Below are positions 21,701 to 28,875 of a DNA stretch of 64,000 bases, piece by piece (position 1 is the first letter of the stretch; each line of letters opens with the position of its first letter). Origin of the DNA: Naegleria gruberi (Eukaryota); the NCBI GenBank assembly GCA_000004985.1, contig GG738880.1; one strand, written 5' to 3'. A program made the translations under genes and the position numbers. Below the pieces are notes generated by a model, which saw only the letters and a list, made by a program, of their open reading frames with translations, was not told the origin of the DNA and did no database searches.

Positions 21701-24138
21701 AAGAGTCGAAAGAAAGAGAAAGAAATCAACAAAAATTGAGGAAATTTATTTGGATTTTGATGAAATACAAGCCAAATTGGAAAAGAAGTACAAGGATTCT
21801 TTCCTTGTAGTGAGTCAACAATTCTACACTGATAAGAATCAATTGGGATCTTTCATTCCGCTCTACACTAGTGAAACTAATACCAAACTCACAAAAACAC
21901 CCTCCTTTGAACCATTTTCTATCAAACCTACTTTAGAATTCACCAATATCACCTTCAGATTCGAACTGTTTTATTGGGTATCAATCGACAAGCAACAATA
22001 TGACGATTTGGATGTAATGTCACCACGACAATACAAACAATCACCAATTGACGCAAAAAAATCATCAAACACCAGAACAACCACCATAGGTCACTACAGA
22101 AGATTAATTGGAGCAACAGAAGTTACCTATACTGATTTTATCAAATTCTTTGATTTACCCTCTGTTCCAACACCTGAATCGACAAGTTCTTCCTCCACTA
22201 GTAAACCTCTCAAAGGGGATAATGATCTATTGTTGGGACCATTCTTCCACATTTCTAGCTCTGGACTCACCGAAGCTACCAATAGCACAACCACACCAAG
22301 GAAAACAAGAAAATCCCTGAAAAATGTTACATTTGAATCAGAGGAAAAGTCCAACAATTCGAATAGTGGACCCCCAACGAATAGAGTTTCTCCTCTTACA
22401 ATGAAATTACTAGTCGATCGTAGAATTCACATTATCAAAGAGGAAACACTTGCTCCACAAGGAATGGATCCAGTAGAAGATGAAAATAATCCATCAGTTG
22501 TTCACAGAAGAAGAAAGGTTCTCACTGTAGTAAATGTTCAGAGTGGATCTCTCACATTCAAGAGTGTCAAGGAGAGAAAGGTCTTTATTGAAGAACAATC
22601 GGATTTGGATGTGACCTATACATTCCTTGATTATATGAAAACTGGATTGAGATTTAAATGTTACTTTGCTCTCGATTTTACCAAAGATAATACGTAAGTT
22701 TCATTTAACTTTTTAAATCTTTACAATTTAGTGAGCCGAGAAATGAAGGAAATTTACACATTGCTCCAAAAGGACAAAAATCCATCTATGAACAATGTAT
22801 TGACAGCATCAGTAAGAGAATATTCCAATATGATCCAAATATGACCGATTTCCACTTGGTTGGATTTGGAAATGATACACAGGAACCAGTTTTCAATTTG
22901 TACAGTAAGGGAGACGACCTTCTCGAGGAGGAAACTTCATCTTCTTCCATGTATTTTAGAGATGACAATGCCTCTGCAAGCTCTGAGGATAAGTCACAAA
23001 ATTACATTTACTCTGTATTATATCCAAGATATTATCCTCCTTTGAAAATTCATCAACTTTCACCAGTAAGTTTTTCACAAATTTTAAAATTTTACAATTA
23101 ACACTTGTAAAATTCTTGTAATAATTTGGAATTTAATAGATTTATCGACAATATATTTCGAGCACGGGTGGAAATTTCAAGCTCACCATGCAAGATTGTG
23201 TCAAAACTCGTCATTATGCCTTCACAGAGACAAACGTTCACAAGGGCACCAGAGATTTGACAAATGCCAATAGATTTAGCTATGATGATGGTTTGAAACA
23301 TGAGAAATTGAAACGAATGTCCTCTCCAGAATTTATTCACCTCAATTATATTGATTCTCCAAAGGTAACAACCTCTTCACTTACCCACCAAGGCAACAGT
23401 TTCTCAAGCAAATCACCAATAGTTGGCTCTTCCTCTATGGAAAGTGAAAAGAAATCAGCAAGCAAATCGAGTCTTTTCAAAAATAACATTTTCGAATCAC
23501 AAAAAGTAACCTCCAAATATGCTCCAAATGATTATTATCCAGTAATTTCTGATGTTATTGATTTGAGTTGTAATTTGAAGAATGAGGAAAGTATTGCCCA
23601 AACTCTTCTCTATCTCTACAGAGAACAGCAAATGTCAAAGATGGGTCATAGAAATTCAACCTCTTCCACACTCTCCTCTGATAGTTCTACCATGATGAAT
23701 ATTACACCAGTTCTGTACAATATTTTGGTAATCTTGATACCGAATGACTTTATTCATGTTGAGGAGACAATTTACAAATTTGTGGAGGCTTCACATAAGG
23801 CTGCTCTCTCAATTATTGTCATTGGAGTTGGAAGTGGATGTGGATTCAAAACTCACAGATCTATCAATACGAACACTGATTATGTTAGTAATAATTCTAC
23901 CTCTGGATCTGGAGGAAGAACTCTCCAATACAGAATTCAAACCATCATTCCAACAACAACTGATTTACAATATAGAGGATTGAGAGCTGCTCGTGGTTGT
24001 GTAACATTTGTAAGATTGAACGATCATGAAACTGTAAATGAGGCAGTGGAAGCAGCTTTGCAACACATTCCAAAACAAGTTTGTCGCTACATGAAGATGA
24101 AAGGTAGAGAAATATTATCATCCGGAAATAATCAATAA
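18781..24138 (+). CDS. Copine-like vWA-domain protein with a ~740-aa N/S/Q-rich N-terminal extension; 4 exons
   Basis: Proposed model is join(18781..20990, 21065..22693, 22732..23065, 23140..24138). GTAAGT donors sit at 20991, 22694 and 23066 with TAG acceptors, and the phases are consistent. Exon 2 is open from 21060 but has no in-frame ATG for ~380 nt, so it is internal. Copine-like motifs are YFALDFTKDNT (MIDAS-like), FHLVGFGNDT and ALSIIVIGVGSG. Confidence 0.6.
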
Positions 24139-24444: not shown

Positions 24445-25083
24445 TCAAATTCTTCTTTCCAATATGAAATACGAAAATCCAAATGGTTTCGTTTCAATAT
24501 ACTGTAAGACTTGTTCCCAGAGTGAAAAGAAACTATCCAATGTTCTCAAATCTGGTATACTAGTAAAGGTACTAAATTGAAATATCTGTATATTCATGAA
24601 TGTGGTCATTATATGATATATCACTTTTCTTCGTTTCATATTCAAAGTAATGATTGGCAATAATTTCTTTGCAACTTGATTGACCATATCCTTTCGAGTG
24701 GCATTCAAATTGTTCAACATTGATTTTAAATATCTTTCAGTTTTAGTCATCGAATTAAGTATCCAAACATTTGAATATAAGTAAATATTCTCCAAACTTC
24801 TATATCGTGAAATTGTTTTTTTTCGTAAATAACTGCTCGCCATGTTGGCTGCCATTTCACATTCCACTTGTGGATGATCTATGTATTGATGAAACTTTAT
24901 CAAATTCCTAAAGGAAACCTCCCAAAAATTGGTATCATCATTGTCCATTATTAATCTATTCAATCTTTTACAGACACACAACAAATTCCTTCCCGAATAT
25001 GAAATCATTAAAAAATCACCAATAATATTAAAGAGAAGAATGTGATCGGGTATTCCCTTGATAATTTCTGTCATTTTTTTCAT
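24445..25083 (-). CDS. Hypothetical protein (212 aa). An adjacent ORF at 24197..24448 may be its 3' exon or a frameshifted continuation
   Basis: The ORF has typical codon usage and a weak F-box-like N-terminus (IPDHILLFNIIGDF). It has no confident domain. Confidence 0.35.
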   Translation of the reverse strand: MKKMTEIIKGIPDHILLFNIIGDFLMISYSGRNLLCVCKRLNRLIMDNDDTNFWEVSFRNLIKFHQYIDHPQVECEMAANMASSYLRKKTISRYRSLENIYLYSNVWILNSMTKTERYLKSMLNNLNATRKDMVNQVAKKLLPIITLNMKRRKVIYHIMTTFMNIQIFQFSTFTSIPDLRTLDSFFSLWEQVLQYIETKPFGFSYFILERRI

Positions 25084-25149
25084 CTATTTCAAAAACGTGC
25101 GATTATTTCAAATCTCAATCTTTACAAAAATAACCTTTATTTTAAATAT

Positions 25150-27573
25150 TTATTGAATTTCCTTAGCAAAGAAAGTAGCATCTGGTCTATCAGCTCCAAG
25201 TAATTTGGTGATAGATTCGAGTGGCTTAGTAGCTGCTTCAGTTGACAAGACAGACTTCAAAGATGATGAGAATTTAGACATGTCACTTCCTGACAATCCT
25301 GAGGCAAAGATGTGGGCAGCAACAATTTCAGTATAGAGTTCAGAATAGTATGGTTGGCTTTCAAGGTTGAACAATCTCTTAGAGAAGAAGGAAATGTTTG
25401 GAATCAATTGTGTGTATGGCTTGCAAAAACGTGACTCAATGGAGGAGAGAATTTCGATTGGTGTACTTTGAGAAGCATCGATTGGTTTGAAAACTTCCAA
25501 TTCGAACAGAGAGTAAACCATTTGTTGAACTAATTCTAATGGATATTGTGTTGGAGTTGTAGAAAGTTGTCTGGCATATTCTTCAGGTATTGGTTGTTTT
25601 GAACCTCTGTGTGAAAGATTTGCCAAGAGGAATTCGGTATTTTGTGGTAATCTTTCAAAAACTTTACGAACAACCTTGGACAAGAGATTAGTTTCAGAGA
25701 CAGCAGATGAACTTTGGCTGAGAATGTGGAAGAGAGCTTGACCAAAAGCACCAGACAAACTCTTGAATTGTTTGAGATTGAGTGTGTTTGAAACACTGTA
25801 GATGTGATCTCCCAAGTTCATTTGAATAACAGCACTCTTCAAGCCGTTTTCTCCAGAAATTGGATGGAGCTTAGCCTTATCAGAGGCATAAGCATCAAAA
25901 TGTTGAGTCTTTTCTCTTTCAAAGAGATCGAGATAAATGTGACCAACAACCTTACCATTTGAAACAACGTTGAGTTTCTTGATATTGAGTGGTGACCAGG
26001 TTTCAGATGGAGCCAACTTTTCTGGAACTACCTCAACACCGAAAGCTTGAGAAGCAACAGTCTTTGTTAAACCGTCCAAAACAGAGCTCAATGACATGTA
26101 GTTTTGAATATCAGATGGCAAGTAATTAACTCTAACACGGTTATAGTGGAGATTTGACAATTGCATAATATCAAAACCTGGAGTGAAAAGCTTCAAATCT
26201 TCAGCAGTTTGCTTTGACTTGTTGTAGAAACATCTCTTAAGAACTGGATCAGTCATTCTGGTAATCTTCAATTCAGACAATTTTTCAACTTCCTTCTTGA
26301 TATCGATTTGTTCCTTCAATTGACCAATAACTTTAACAAAGTCATCAACCTTTGGTACGTTATTATTGGACATGTTGACAGTAGCAATCTTCATTTCAAC
26401 AAATGATTGATATCCAAGAGTCTTGGCAAAAGCATTGGAAGCATCAATAGCGGAAGCAACCTTTGAGTTGAATTCATTATCAGCTGAACCAGTAAAGAAT
26501 TTCTTGGTAGCTTCATCAAACAAATCGGTTCTGAGACTTTCTTCAGAAACATTTGTAAGAATAGCTTCCAAATCCTTTTCCAAGTTGAGAAGAATAAACT
26601 TCTTCTTCTTTTGAACTTCCATCTTTAAAGACTTGCTGTGAGCTTCTGGAAGTTCATAAATTCTCATAGATCCTCTAACCTTAGTATTAACATGAGTTTG
26701 AATATAATCGTTCAATTCTTTAACTCTCTTTTCAAAATCTTCCTTAGCTTCAGTGAATTTTTCACGGCTAGATTCCACACCATAAATATTTCTAACTTCA
26801 TTAGCGAGTGGAGTATCCAAAACGAGTGATTGTGTGGCCTTTCCGAACTTTTCATTTGTGAGAGCACGTTGAGCAAAGAATTGTGAAAAGTTATCATGGA
26901 TTTCTTGAGCGGCAACAGCAAGGTCTTCAAATGGATGCAATTGAATAAAAGCCTTCAATGACGACAAGTAAGAGAATCGCAAATTAGTTAATTCGAGAGT
27001 ATTTCTAGAGACATCTTCTCCCTTTTCTATACTACTAACCAAATCATCAACTCTTCCTTTAGCAAGAACCAATGAATCTCTCATTGATGAAGCATCCTTG
27101 AAATGTTTCAATCCAAAATATCCGGTTTGTTCAGAGAGCTTGGAAACATCAATATTCTTGCTAGTGTTCACAAATTCAGCCAAAGATGGTGTTTTAGCCA
27201 ATTCAGCGATATATTTTCCTGTAACTTTCTTCTTTGGGTAGAGTTTTTCAATAGATGGTGGTTTTGGTTTATCGAGTTCTGAATCTTTAGAAGCTCTCTT
27301 CATGGCTAACTTTTCCTTATTTCTTTGTTCGAGAGCAGCCTTCTTTTGGTCCATTCTCTTTTGGTGTTCCTTTTGTTGATTTCTCTTTACTAAATCCTTC
27401 TTTCTACCACCGGCAACATCCTTTTTGGATCTGCTAATTGTTGATGAAGCAGCAGCATTGAAGAGGATGTGATTGGAAGTCAAGTGAGAGGTAATAGCAA
27501 CAGAATTTGAAGGAAGTGAATTTCCTAATAATGTTGTAGTCTTTGAAAGACCGTGTTTCCAGACAGAGAACAT
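25150..27573 (-). CDS. M3-family metallopeptidase homologue (thimet oligopeptidase / mitochondrial intermediate peptidase-like) with a degenerate HEXXH zinc motif; likely a pseudo-peptidase. It has an N-terminal basic, presequence-like extension
   Basis: The conserved M3 blocks are present: GHIYLDLFEREKTQHFDAYA (compare YLDLYPREGKYGHAA) and the C-terminal LLGADRPDATFFAKEIQ (compare FLGRDPKQDAFLLSKGL). At the HEFGH position the sequence reads SGAFGQALFHILSQ, so both His and the Glu are replaced. Confidence 0.7.
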   Translation of the reverse strand: MFSVWKHGLSKTTTLLGNSLPSNSVAITSHLTSNHILFNAAASSTISRSKKDVAGGRKKDLVKRNQQKEHQKRMDQKKAALEQRNKEKLAMKRASKDSELDKPKPPSIEKLYPKKKVTGKYIAELAKTPSLAEFVNTSKNIDVSKLSEQTGYFGLKHFKDASSMRDSLVLAKGRVDDLVSSIEKGEDVSRNTLELTNLRFSYLSSLKAFIQLHPFEDLAVAAQEIHDNFSQFFAQRALTNEKFGKATQSLVLDTPLANEVRNIYGVESSREKFTEAKEDFEKRVKELNDYIQTHVNTKVRGSMRIYELPEAHSKSLKMEVQKKKKFILLNLEKDLEAILTNVSEESLRTDLFDEATKKFFTGSADNEFNSKVASAIDASNAFAKTLGYQSFVEMKIATVNMSNNNVPKVDDFVKVIGQLKEQIDIKKEVEKLSELKITRMTDPVLKRCFYNKSKQTAEDLKLFTPGFDIMQLSNLHYNRVRVNYLPSDIQNYMSLSSVLDGLTKTVASQAFGVEVVPEKLAPSETWSPLNIKKLNVVSNGKVVGHIYLDLFEREKTQHFDAYASDKAKLHPISGENGLKSAVIQMNLGDHIYSVSNTLNLKQFKSLSGAFGQALFHILSQSSSAVSETNLLSKVVRKVFERLPQNTEFLLANLSHRGSKQPIPEEYARQLSTTPTQYPLELVQQMVYSLFELEVFKPIDASQSTPIEILSSIESRFCKPYTQLIPNISFFSKRLFNLESQPYYSELYTEIVAAHIFASGLSGSDMSKFSSSLKSVLSTEAATKPLESITKLLGADRPDATFFAKEIQ

Positions 27574-28110
27574 TTTTTTTATATTATTAACTACACGTTA
27601 CGGAAGAAGGGAGTGGTGTTGTTGATGTTGTTTTACGAATAATTCACTGTTGTTGTTATATTGTTGTGTGAGTTTGTTCGAGGATGAAGGCAAACAACAG
27701 CAAAATATTTTTTTTCTCGTGCTTCAAAAAATGCCTTGCTGTTTTTTACAAAATTATTCTCTTCTTTATCATTTAATTAATTAATTTATTATTAATGATA
27801 GAGACTTACCAGTCTTCCCTCCTTATTTACATCATTATTGAAAAAACAATACAATTCATCATCCTAGTCATCATCAGGCTATTTTCTGCTATAACCAAAT
27901 TGGACTCGCTACCTTATTAATACAATTTTTGTGAGTTCGAATCACTGCATGATTTTAATAACCACCAAAAAACAAAATCAAAAAAATCAACAACATTTCA
28001 TCTTTTGCTGCATCATCATCAGAAGCGCACTTATTTACCCCTACACCTACTACCGCGAAGAAAAACATCACTGATAATCAAACTCTCAACAACAAAAGAA
28101 ATTCTATAGA

Positions 28111-28875
28111 ATGCATCATCAATTTGATACTACAACAGAACATTCTCAACCAATTGTTCCATTGGATAATGACAATTCAATCGATCTCAAAAACAAGCAG
28201 ATCATTGATGAAGAAAAGGATGAAGCTTCTACAGCTCCAATGTGTAAAGAATTGAAGGAATTTACTCAAGAATTGGAAGATTGTTTTAAAGAAGGAGAAG
28301 GAAAAGTCAACCCGGAACATGTCAAACAAATCTTCAGAAAATATCTTGATAAGATTGACTTGAGTGATTTGGAAGCCTATTGTTTGGCTGATACAAGAGC
28401 TACCTATACTAGAAATTTAATATTTAAAAATCCATACTTTTCATTGATTGTTCTCGCATGGAATCCACAACAACACAGCTCTATTCACAGTCATGCTGGA
28501 TCGCAATGTTGGTTCAGATGTATGAGAGGACAAGTCAAGGAATGCAGATGGATGATTGACCCAACTCATGACCAATCACTCTGTCCTTCAGAACCAACAA
28601 AGGAATTTATTGCCAATGTTAATTCTATTGGTTATATTGATGATAACAATGGTGTTCACTGCATTGTGAATACACGAGATGAAATTAGTGTCACTCTCCA
28701 CTGTTATGCTCCTCCATATGATTCATGTGCATGCTACTCTGAAGAAACAGGTGAAGTCTATAGAGGAAAAGTAATGTTTGACAGTATTGGAGGTGTTATT
28801 GATACATCACATCCTTCAAAGGAATCAGTTGTAAGTAGTACAATTTCCAAAATTGAAAAATTTCTAATTATGTAA
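28111..28875 (+). CDS. Cysteine dioxygenase type I (cupin)
   Basis: LIVLAWNPQQHSSIHSHAGSQCWFRCMRGQVKE matches the CDO core [33 protein letters not shown], including the metal-binding His residues. Confidence 0.8.
   Translation: MHHQFDTTTEHSQPIVPLDNDNSIDLKNKQIIDEEKDEASTAPMCKELKEFTQELEDCFKEGEGKVNPEHVKQIFRKYLDKIDLSDLEAYCLADTRATYTRNLIFKNPYFSLIVLAWNPQQHSSIHSHAGSQCWFRCMRGQVKECRWMIDPTHDQSLCPSEPTKEFIANVNSIGYIDDNNGVHCIVNTRDEISVTLHCYAPPYDSCACYSEETGEVYRGKVMFDSIGGVIDTSHPSKESVVSSTISKIEKFLIM

Follow-up and report, generated by a model that had tools for sequence, protein, structure and literature searches.

The window analysed here is a stretch of 64,000 nucleotides from Naegleria gruberi (assembly GCA_000004985.1, contig GG738880.1). 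On its minus strand lies a gene whose product resembles the mitochondrial intermediate peptidase (MIP), a metallopeptidase of family M3, and has no zinc-binding motif. In the list of open reading frames (ORFs), this gene is an uninterrupted ORF of 807 codons at 25150-27573 (-), which begins with ATG and ends in a TAA-type stop. Its translation matched the annotated protein XP_002675148.1 (also EFC42404.1, D2VLK2 and NAEGRDRAFT_80457) with 100% identity and 100% coverage. Because of this match, the locus can be assigned to the nuclear DNA of N. gruberi (Heterolobosea, Discoba), and the gene can be taken as a single-exon model. The G+C content around it is about 34%. An earlier note on this DNA, made from the letters, had placed the host among the Amoebozoa, which was mistaken. 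Its central claim, an M3 homologue with an ablated HEXXH site, held up. Our results indicate that the protein, called D2VLK2 below, is very probably a dead, retained, mitochondrial paralogue of MIP. The features of the locus are collected in Table 1.

The former zinc site

The helix that carries the zinc site in active M3 peptidases reads SGAFGQALFH in D2VLK2. We compared it with canonical sequences in three independent alignments: phmmer against neurolysin, MAFFT with up to 82 M3 sequences, and hhalign of the dead family (the relatives of D2VLK2 that share the loss) against 31 canonical MIPs. All of them placed residues 608-612 (GAFGQ) opposite HEFGH, and the canonical FHExGHxxH now reads S-G-A-F-G-Q-A-L-F. 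Single residues were mapped through the hhalign columns onto the canonical MIP of N. gruberi (P0090). The zinc ligands H525 and H529 of P0090 correspond to G608 and Q612, and the catalytic Glu, E526, corresponds to A609. The replacement of both ligand His residues and the catalytic Glu, as proposed in the earlier note, is thus found in three alignments. The same note had called the region of the third ligand divergent, and this was also borne out: E554 of P0090, the Glu of FVE(T/V)PS, is opposite K633 in both MAFFT and hhalign. The Pro and Ser of D-x-x-E-x-P-S are V635 and R636 in the alignments. Further downstream, two positions that do not vary among MIPs, a His and a Tyr (H661 and Y672 of P0090), have become F729 and E745 in the hhalign columns. 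The position of Y672 may be that of the transition-state Tyr, Y612 of thimet oligopeptidase. G611, E640, Y742 and Y743 were kept. The M3 signature quoted in PMC5919513 is F-H-E-X-G-H-(X)2-H-(X)12-G-(X)5-D-(X)2-E-X-P-S-(X)3-E, and only two of its 12 specified positions, G611 and E640, survive in D2VLK2.

The motif was not displaced to another place. A scan of all six frames of 24850-27873, which extends 300 bp beyond the locus in both directions, turned up no H[ED]xxH, and none is present in the 15 members of the dead family that were checked. As the motif is absent from every frame, a frameshift or a missed intron cannot account for its loss. Together with the intact ORF, this disposes of the two explanations against which the earlier note had cautioned, an intact HEXXH elsewhere in the sequence and an unrecognised intron or frameshift. 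Judged by the alignments, D2VLK2 is without any of the three zinc ligands and without the catalytic Glu, and it has none of the hallmarks of an active M3 peptidase that were tested. Since the ligands and the catalytic Glu are lost, it should not be able to work as a metallopeptidase.

One might still suppose that D2VLK2 is an enzyme of another kind, a hydrolase with a non-canonical metal or catalytic site in place of HEXXH. The strong purifying selection and the high abundance described below show that the protein has some job, and E640 and H655 hardly vary in the alignments. However, both residues are conserved in canonical M3 peptidases too, where other residues ligate the zinc. The conserved catalytic positions are now occupied by G, A, Q, K and F, which can neither ligate zinc nor act as a base. 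In addition, the replacements vary by lineage, and no alternative constellation of His, Glu, Asp or Cys is conserved family-wide. A persisting enzymatic function therefore seems to us highly improbable.

Table 1. Features of the locus and of the encoded protein (positions in the window; aa, amino acids).
Feature	Residues	Position	Strand	Remarks
Dead-MIP coding sequence, NAEGRDRAFT_80457		25150..27573	-	complete, single exon, 807 aa + stop
Two-domain M3A (neurolysin/MIP-like) fold, predicted	aa 130-807	25153..27186	-	
SGAFGQALFH, former zinc-site helix	aa 607-616	25726..25755	-	phmmer, MAFFT, hhalign
SKVVRKVFER, former third-ligand helix	aa 632-641	25651..25680	-	K633 replaces ligand Glu; E640 downstream kept
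QPYYSELY, remnant of canonical GAGYYSYLY loop	aa 740-747	25333..25356	-	hhalign and MIP invariant columns
YLDLFEREK, best-conserved M3 core block	aa 547-555	25909..25935	-	
LLGADRPDATFFAKEIQ, C-terminal block common to canonical M3 peptidases	aa 791-807	25153..25203	-	
Presequence-like N-terminus	aa 1-50	27424..27573	-	Ser/Thr-rich, four Lys/Arg, first acidic residue D52
Strongly basic K/R/Q/E helix KKDLVKRNQQKEHQKRMDQKKAALEQRNKEKLAMKRASKD	aa 58-97	27283..27402	-	pLDDT 84-93
Short conserved linear motif PPSIEKLYPKKK	aa 105-116	27226..27261	-	low-pLDDT linker
Small ORF adjoining the dead-MIP gene		24445-25083		212 aa
Copine-like neighbour gene		23188-24138	+	
Cysteine dioxygenase (CDO_I) neighbour gene		28111-28875	+	

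Homology, fold and distribution of the dead family

The homology of D2VLK2 to M3 peptidases is not obvious from the single sequence. When the N. gruberi protein was searched alone, it had no match to Pfam Peptidase_M3 (PF01432), and phmmer matched it to neurolysin only at E 0.023. A profile built from the five Naegleria and Willaertia sequences returned nothing above noise from the Protein Data Bank (PDB). The orthologues of N. fowleri and N. lovaniensis, by comparison, matched the Pfam profile with 57.6 and 66 bits (gathering score 27) over its positions 2-452 of 457, and a profile of 14 dead-family sequences matched neurolysin at E 1.8e-39. The hhalign comparison of the dead family with the 31 MIPs gave a probability of 100% and E 2.3e-68 over 624 columns, covering aa 148-807. 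An AlphaFold2 model made with the 82-sequence alignment had a mean predicted local distance difference test (pLDDT) of 85.1 and a predicted template modelling score (pTM) of 0.82. In it, aa 1-56 are disordered, aa 58-97 form a helix and a confident M3 body begins at about aa 130. In a Foldseek search of the model against the PDB, the top matches were all M3A peptidases, among them organellar oligopeptidase (OOP; E 8e-21) and thimet oligopeptidase (TM score 0.78). By homology and by its modelled fold, D2VLK2 belongs to M3A and comes from its MIP branch. The M3 homology along the length of the protein, as claimed in the earlier note, is in agreement with the Pfam matches of the orthologues, the hhalign result and the model.

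The sequence blocks quoted in that note are also present. In YLDLFEREK, Y547 does not vary across the dead family, and L548 and D549 hardly do. The block LLGADRPDATFFAKEIQ lies opposite the canonical LG..P motif in the alignments, and the heterolobosean orthologues all have its residues G793, P797, D798, K804 and E805.

N. gruberi also has an intact MIP. This protein, XP_002673512.1 (P0090), retains HELGH and has a Phytophthora MIP as its best BLAST match (1e-116); a thimet-like peptidase is encoded in the genome as well. D2VLK2 and P0090 are 20% identical. By sequence comparison, D2VLK2 is a paralogue beside the intact MIP and not the MIP orthologue. Its gene arose long ago by duplication of the MIP/Oct1 (MIPEP) gene of MEROPS M3A, and the full two-domain clam-shell fold was kept. 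The two proteins share the homology over aa 148-807, the two-domain fold and the mitochondrial location. They differ in that MIP has HEXXH, the third-ligand Glu and the C-terminal His and Tyr, all missing from D2VLK2, whereas D2VLK2 carries an additional basic helix at its N-terminus and exceeds MIP about 11-fold in abundance. The other characterised M3A peptidases, thimet oligopeptidase, neurolysin and organellar oligopeptidase (PDB 1S4B, 1I1I, 4FXY and 4KA7), are active, carry HEFGH and are 13-15% identical to D2VLK2.

The extra N-terminal part has two components. The earlier note had described a basic, presequence-like extension. A Ser/Thr-rich, presequence-like segment is indeed present in roughly the first 50 residues, where it is disordered in the model (pLDDT 29-51), but the basic part is a separate helix farther downstream. 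The isoelectric point (pI) is 10.3 for the first 130 residues and 6.75 for the remainder of the protein. A short linear motif, PPSIEKLYPKKK, follows the basic helix and has been conserved out to Willaertia; over aa 101-120, the proteins of N. gruberi and Willaertia reach 60% identity, compared with a mean of 37.5%. A search of the N-terminal 114 residues against PDB sequences returned low-complexity noise only. The module of presequence and basic helix is also present in N. fowleri, W. magna, Acrasis kona and P0012, and it is absent from P0090. Since members of the dead family have it and the canonical MIP does not, this module is a shared derived feature of the family.

The earlier note had suggested a check of whether orthologues share the substitutions. 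They do, and the species are heterolobosean rather than amoebozoan. The motif is absent in all five close sequences: N. gruberi, N. fowleri, a Naegleria-like sequence from the European Nucleotide Archive (ENA), N. lovaniensis and Willaertia magna. An exhaustive HMMER profile search of 1.84 billion representatives gave 108 matches. The best 10 of these outside Naegleria and Willaertia, the protist sequence clusters P0006-P0014 and P0016, were all without HEXXH, while nearly all lower-ranked matches carried HE[FMLW]GH. The contigs of P0006-P0016 have 40-51% GC, and most relatives in the dead clade are Logan, JGI (Joint Genome Institute) or ENA sequences. Word-indexed homologue searches with two alignments (A2 and A4) gave no named members of the wider family among the matches listed. 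A named member from a more distant genus is KAL0485816.1 of Acrasis kona (757 aa), which was found outside the tree described below. It is annotated as 'mitochondrial intermediate peptidase Mipep', is 23% identical to the N. gruberi protein (E 2e-34), and reads TRSFLSTFYH at the site, with no HEXXH. The loss of the zinc motif is thus common to at least five named heterolobosean species (N. gruberi, N. fowleri, N. lovaniensis, W. magna and A. kona), and on the available sequences the dead family spans at least Naegleria, Willaertia and Acrasis. As these three genera have both the dead state and the N-terminal module in common, the loss must be old within Heterolobosea.

A rough neighbour-joining (NJ) tree put most of the dead sequences and the Naegleria proteins into one clade. 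This clade adjoins MIP-type sequences carrying SRTxxQHxSGTR. The canonical matches to the dead-family profile are nearly all of this type, and the signature is also found in P0090. The canonical relatives nearest by profile search are therefore MIP-type and not of the thimet, OpdA or Dcp types.

Two adjacent and overlapping calls in a JGI metagenome (3300062135, Ga0606108_1029; L002:1485-3295), P0087 (189 aa) and P0008 (415 aa), are 36% and 33% identical to the Acrasis kona protein. They are probably one gene of an acrasid-like organism that was split by a prokaryote-style caller.

Some sequences without HEXXH were found outside the heterolobosean dead clade of the NJ tree. These are P0041 (EP01129_P002327) of the amoebozoan Flabellula baltica, P0055 (PIA18895.1, annotated as 'zincin') of the kickxellomycete fungus Coemansia reversa, and the NCBI sequence P0065. 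The proteins of F. baltica and C. reversa are M3A-fold sequences without the zinc motif from the same profile search, like D2VLK2, but unlike the heterolobosean family they have no N-terminal module. From their sequences and positions, the three look like independent inactivations.

Two other candidates were rejected. The 'additional MIP-like protein' of Andalucia godoyi was considered as a jakobid member. This protein (_07597, 'additional MIP' in PMC7050145) is short (521 aa) and divergent, but its HEFGH is intact and its best matches are canonical MIPs. In the stretch shown of the other A. godoyi entry, _06015, annotated as 'MIP (Oct1)' in PMC7050145, visual inspection suggested a thimet-like protein. 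The MIP of T. brucei was considered as a dead homologue and was dropped as HEXXH is present.

The gene order around the locus is conserved. The genes for cysteine dioxygenase, the dead MIP, a small ORF and copine follow each other in N. gruberi, N. fowleri and N. lovaniensis, and because of this common order the orthologues in the latter two species can be regarded as positional. Between the 212-aa ORF at 24445-25083 and its neighbour counterpart in N. fowleri, no similarity was found.

Maintenance, expression and mitochondrial abundance

The absence of a Pfam match in the N. gruberi sequence alone could raise the suspicion that the gene is a product of faulty annotation or assembly, or a MIP pseudogene in decay. 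A further reason for suspicion is the orthologue of N. lovaniensis (PYSW02000028.1), for which the annotation gives two genes, C9374_006609 (299 aa) and C9374_006608 (493 aa). We found that this split is due to a 1-nt deletion at ...AFEK|AVKDL..., which shifts the frame (L007:2880-3010). However, the ratio of nonsynonymous to synonymous substitution rates (dN/dS) between N. fowleri and N. lovaniensis is 0.14 in the N-terminal 299 codons and 0.17 in the C-terminal 493 codons, with an unsaturated dS of about 0.35. As both halves have a dN/dS of about 0.15, an assembly indel is likelier than a true pseudogene in N. lovaniensis. Between N. gruberi and N. fowleri, dN/dS is 0.14, but dS is saturated in this pair. 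The gene is under purifying selection. In addition, the ORF is intact in N. gruberi, N. fowleri, W. magna and A. kona each have a full-length, intact orthologue, and the protein has been detected by 45 peptides with 61.6% coverage. These observations refute an artefact or pseudogene, to which we assign practically no probability.

The peptide evidence comes from the mitochondrial proteome of N. gruberi published in PMC8134430 (Horvathova et al. 2021). In its Supplementary Data 2, D2VLK2 is listed with 45 unique peptides, and it is within the 946-protein mitochondrial set. Over increasingly pure mitochondrial fractions, its log2 label-free quantification (LFQ) values were 25.5/28.5/30.7, and those of the canonical MIP were 22.4/25.1/27.2, with 16 peptides. 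The signal of D2VLK2 is therefore about 11-fold above that of MIP, and, far from being a marginal relic, the protein ranks with the more abundant ones in the matrix fraction of N. gruberi. The published predictors were divided on its location: PSORTII (48) and MultiLoc (82) favoured mitochondria, whereas TargetP, suggested as a check in the earlier note, gave 40 for mitochondria and 50 for 'other'. The mitochondrial location of D2VLK2 rests on the published proteomics, which also gives experimental backing to its expression and stability. The protein is expressed and selectively maintained. The conserved loss of the site, the purifying selection and the presence in the mitochondrial proteome are all in line with the proposal of the earlier note that a dead M3 fold has been retained for a non-enzymatic, probably mitochondrial role.

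No description of a dead MIP paralogue was found in full-text literature searches. The only prior record found for D2VLK2 is its row in the proteome table of PMC8134430, where it is filed with the processing peptidases and labelled by its best BLAST match, a MIP. Pseudoenzymes are common in general, and among processing peptidases they are known from family M16, as MPP-alpha and the core proteins of the bc1 complex. D2VLK2 is a case from M3, in which none has been characterised. It is conserved in the pathogen N. fowleri too, with the lineage-specific basic module. The annotations 'Peptidase M3A/M3B catalytic domain-containing protein' and 'mitochondrial intermediate peptidase Mipep' wrongly imply activity, and surveys of the machinery for import and processing in which D2VLK2 is counted as a second MIP will overestimate the processing capacity.

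Possible roles and a possible relation to mL70

What could a dead MIP do? The residues that are invariant or nearly invariant across the whole dead family are few: F511, E524, Y547, L548, D549, L598 and H655. Most of the family-wide conserved residues sit in blocks common to canonical M3 peptidases, and none replaces a zinc ligand. The residues of the former cleft and active-site helix are conserved among close relatives only and drift across the wider family. Because of this drift, a structural role fits better than a conserved recognition of peptides. What the family has added and conserved is the polybasic helix, which would favour a scaffold or tether over peptide recognition. D2VLK2 probably marks a structural function in heterolobosean mitochondria. 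In the version that we prefer, the rigid M3 body would act as a scaffold without catalytic function, tethered by the basic N-terminal helix to a polyanionic partner, most plausibly mitochondrial RNA or the mitoribosome. We put this version as a whole forward tentatively, as plausible but somewhat short of an even chance.

Some of our observations weigh against this interpretation. With a pI of about 7, the M3 body is close to neutral and not basic like a typical RNA-binding protein; its net charge is -0.6 compared with -5.8 in canonical relatives, which makes it about five charges less acidic (p = 0.0006). The NJ tree is a crude one, in which the dead clade could look more monophyletic than it is because of long-branch attraction. 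The fractionation profile in the proteome is not discriminating, as it is common to all matrix proteins. Within Naegleria and Willaertia, moreover, the former active-site helix and an adjacent segment are well conserved (QF[KR]SL[SC]GxxGQxLF and SxVIQMxL), and these conserved cleft elements leave room for a role with a ligand in the cleft, such as recognition in the manner of MPP-alpha.

A role of the latter kind would make D2VLK2 a non-catalytic binder of peptides or presequences that uses the retained clam-shell channel, either as partner of an active processing peptidase or as a holdase or buffer for N-terminal segments in the matrix. The complete two-domain architecture of the channel is kept, with high model confidence, and Y742 and Y743 of the YY loop remain. 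The zinc-site helix and SxVIQMxL are among the better-conserved segments within Naegleria and Willaertia. In the wider family, however, the cleft residues are not conserved: Acrasis has TRSFLSTFYH, and others differ again. The protein is mitochondrial and stands among the processing peptidases in the source proteome (PMC8134430), yet its roughly 11-fold excess over MIP speaks against an obligate 1:1 partnership. There is a precedent in MPP-alpha, which lacks the zinc site and partners MPP-beta (PMC9291397). Like the bc1 core proteins, MPP-alpha is a zinc-motif-less paralogue of a processing peptidase kept for recognition or structure, but this parallel is one of concept only, as these proteins have an unrelated fold and belong to an unrelated family (M16, HXXEH). 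The binder would also leave the conserved basic N-terminal helix unexplained. Furthermore, M3A peptidases are known as monomers, which does not favour a partnership. Taken together, we consider a presequence binder rather unlikely.

The closest structural parallel to D2VLK2 outside the peptidases is mL70 of the kinetoplastid mitoribosome (PDB 7AIH, chain BM), a component of the L1 stalk (PMC8998825) with the same zincin clam-shell fold. D2VLK2 could accordingly be imagined as a genuine protein of the mitoribosomal large subunit, a heterolobosean counterpart and possible orthologue of mL70; a dead copy of MIP would then have joined the mitoribosome early in Discoba. The conserved basic N-terminal helix resembles the extensions of mitoribosomal proteins. 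Heterolobosea and Kinetoplastea both belong to Discoba. The sequences give no sign of a specific common ancestry beyond the fold: the identity is 6%, the M3 profile (A3) matched mL70 (7aih_BM) weakly, at E 1.9 with 10 bits, and the dead-family profile (A2) had no match to it at E <= 10. The link is structural only, and it is no closer than that to M32, M2 and M3B peptidases, which is a further point against our preferred interpretation. At 457 aa, mL70 is also much shorter, about half the length of D2VLK2. In addition, the mitochondrial rRNAs of Naegleria are not known to be reduced like those of kinetoplastids, so there is no obvious gap for such a protein to fill, and a body that is not basic does not help this explanation either.

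The abundance data bear on the same question. The size-normalised LFQ of D2VLK2 is 24.17, and those of mS29, uS9m, uL3m and uL23m are 24.20, 24.07, 24.20 and 24.17. The first six mitoribosomal proteins, including uL13m, lie close around the value of D2VLK2 (24.0-24.4). However, a second sample of mitoribosomal proteins gave 20.6-23.5, the overall range is about 20.6-24.4, and other matrix proteins overlap with it, which again does not help the preferred reading. Because the mitoribosomal range is this broad, the abundance is compatible with a place on the mitoribosome and goes no further. We therefore regard a direct counterpart of mL70 as unlikely, more so than the presequence binder.

A stronger version of this connection would derive the dead-MIP family and mL70 from one recruitment, in which an inactivated duplicate of MIP was built into the mitoribosomal large subunit of an early discoban. 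We consider it a long shot. If it were true, the Naegleria protein would be a little-diverged form still showing the origin of mL70, and the family would be a dated and traceable case of a processing peptidase turned ribosomal protein. A common recruitment also predicts an M3-fold subunit in the still-unsolved mitoribosome of Naegleria. The match of folds in itself offers a possible evolutionary origin for mL70.

Besides D2VLK2, category 9 of the proteome in PMC8134430 contains a second PreP-like protein, XP_002682703.1, which is highly divergent and whose BLAST match to a presequence protease has an E of 1e-10. It might be another degenerate paralogue of a processing peptidase.

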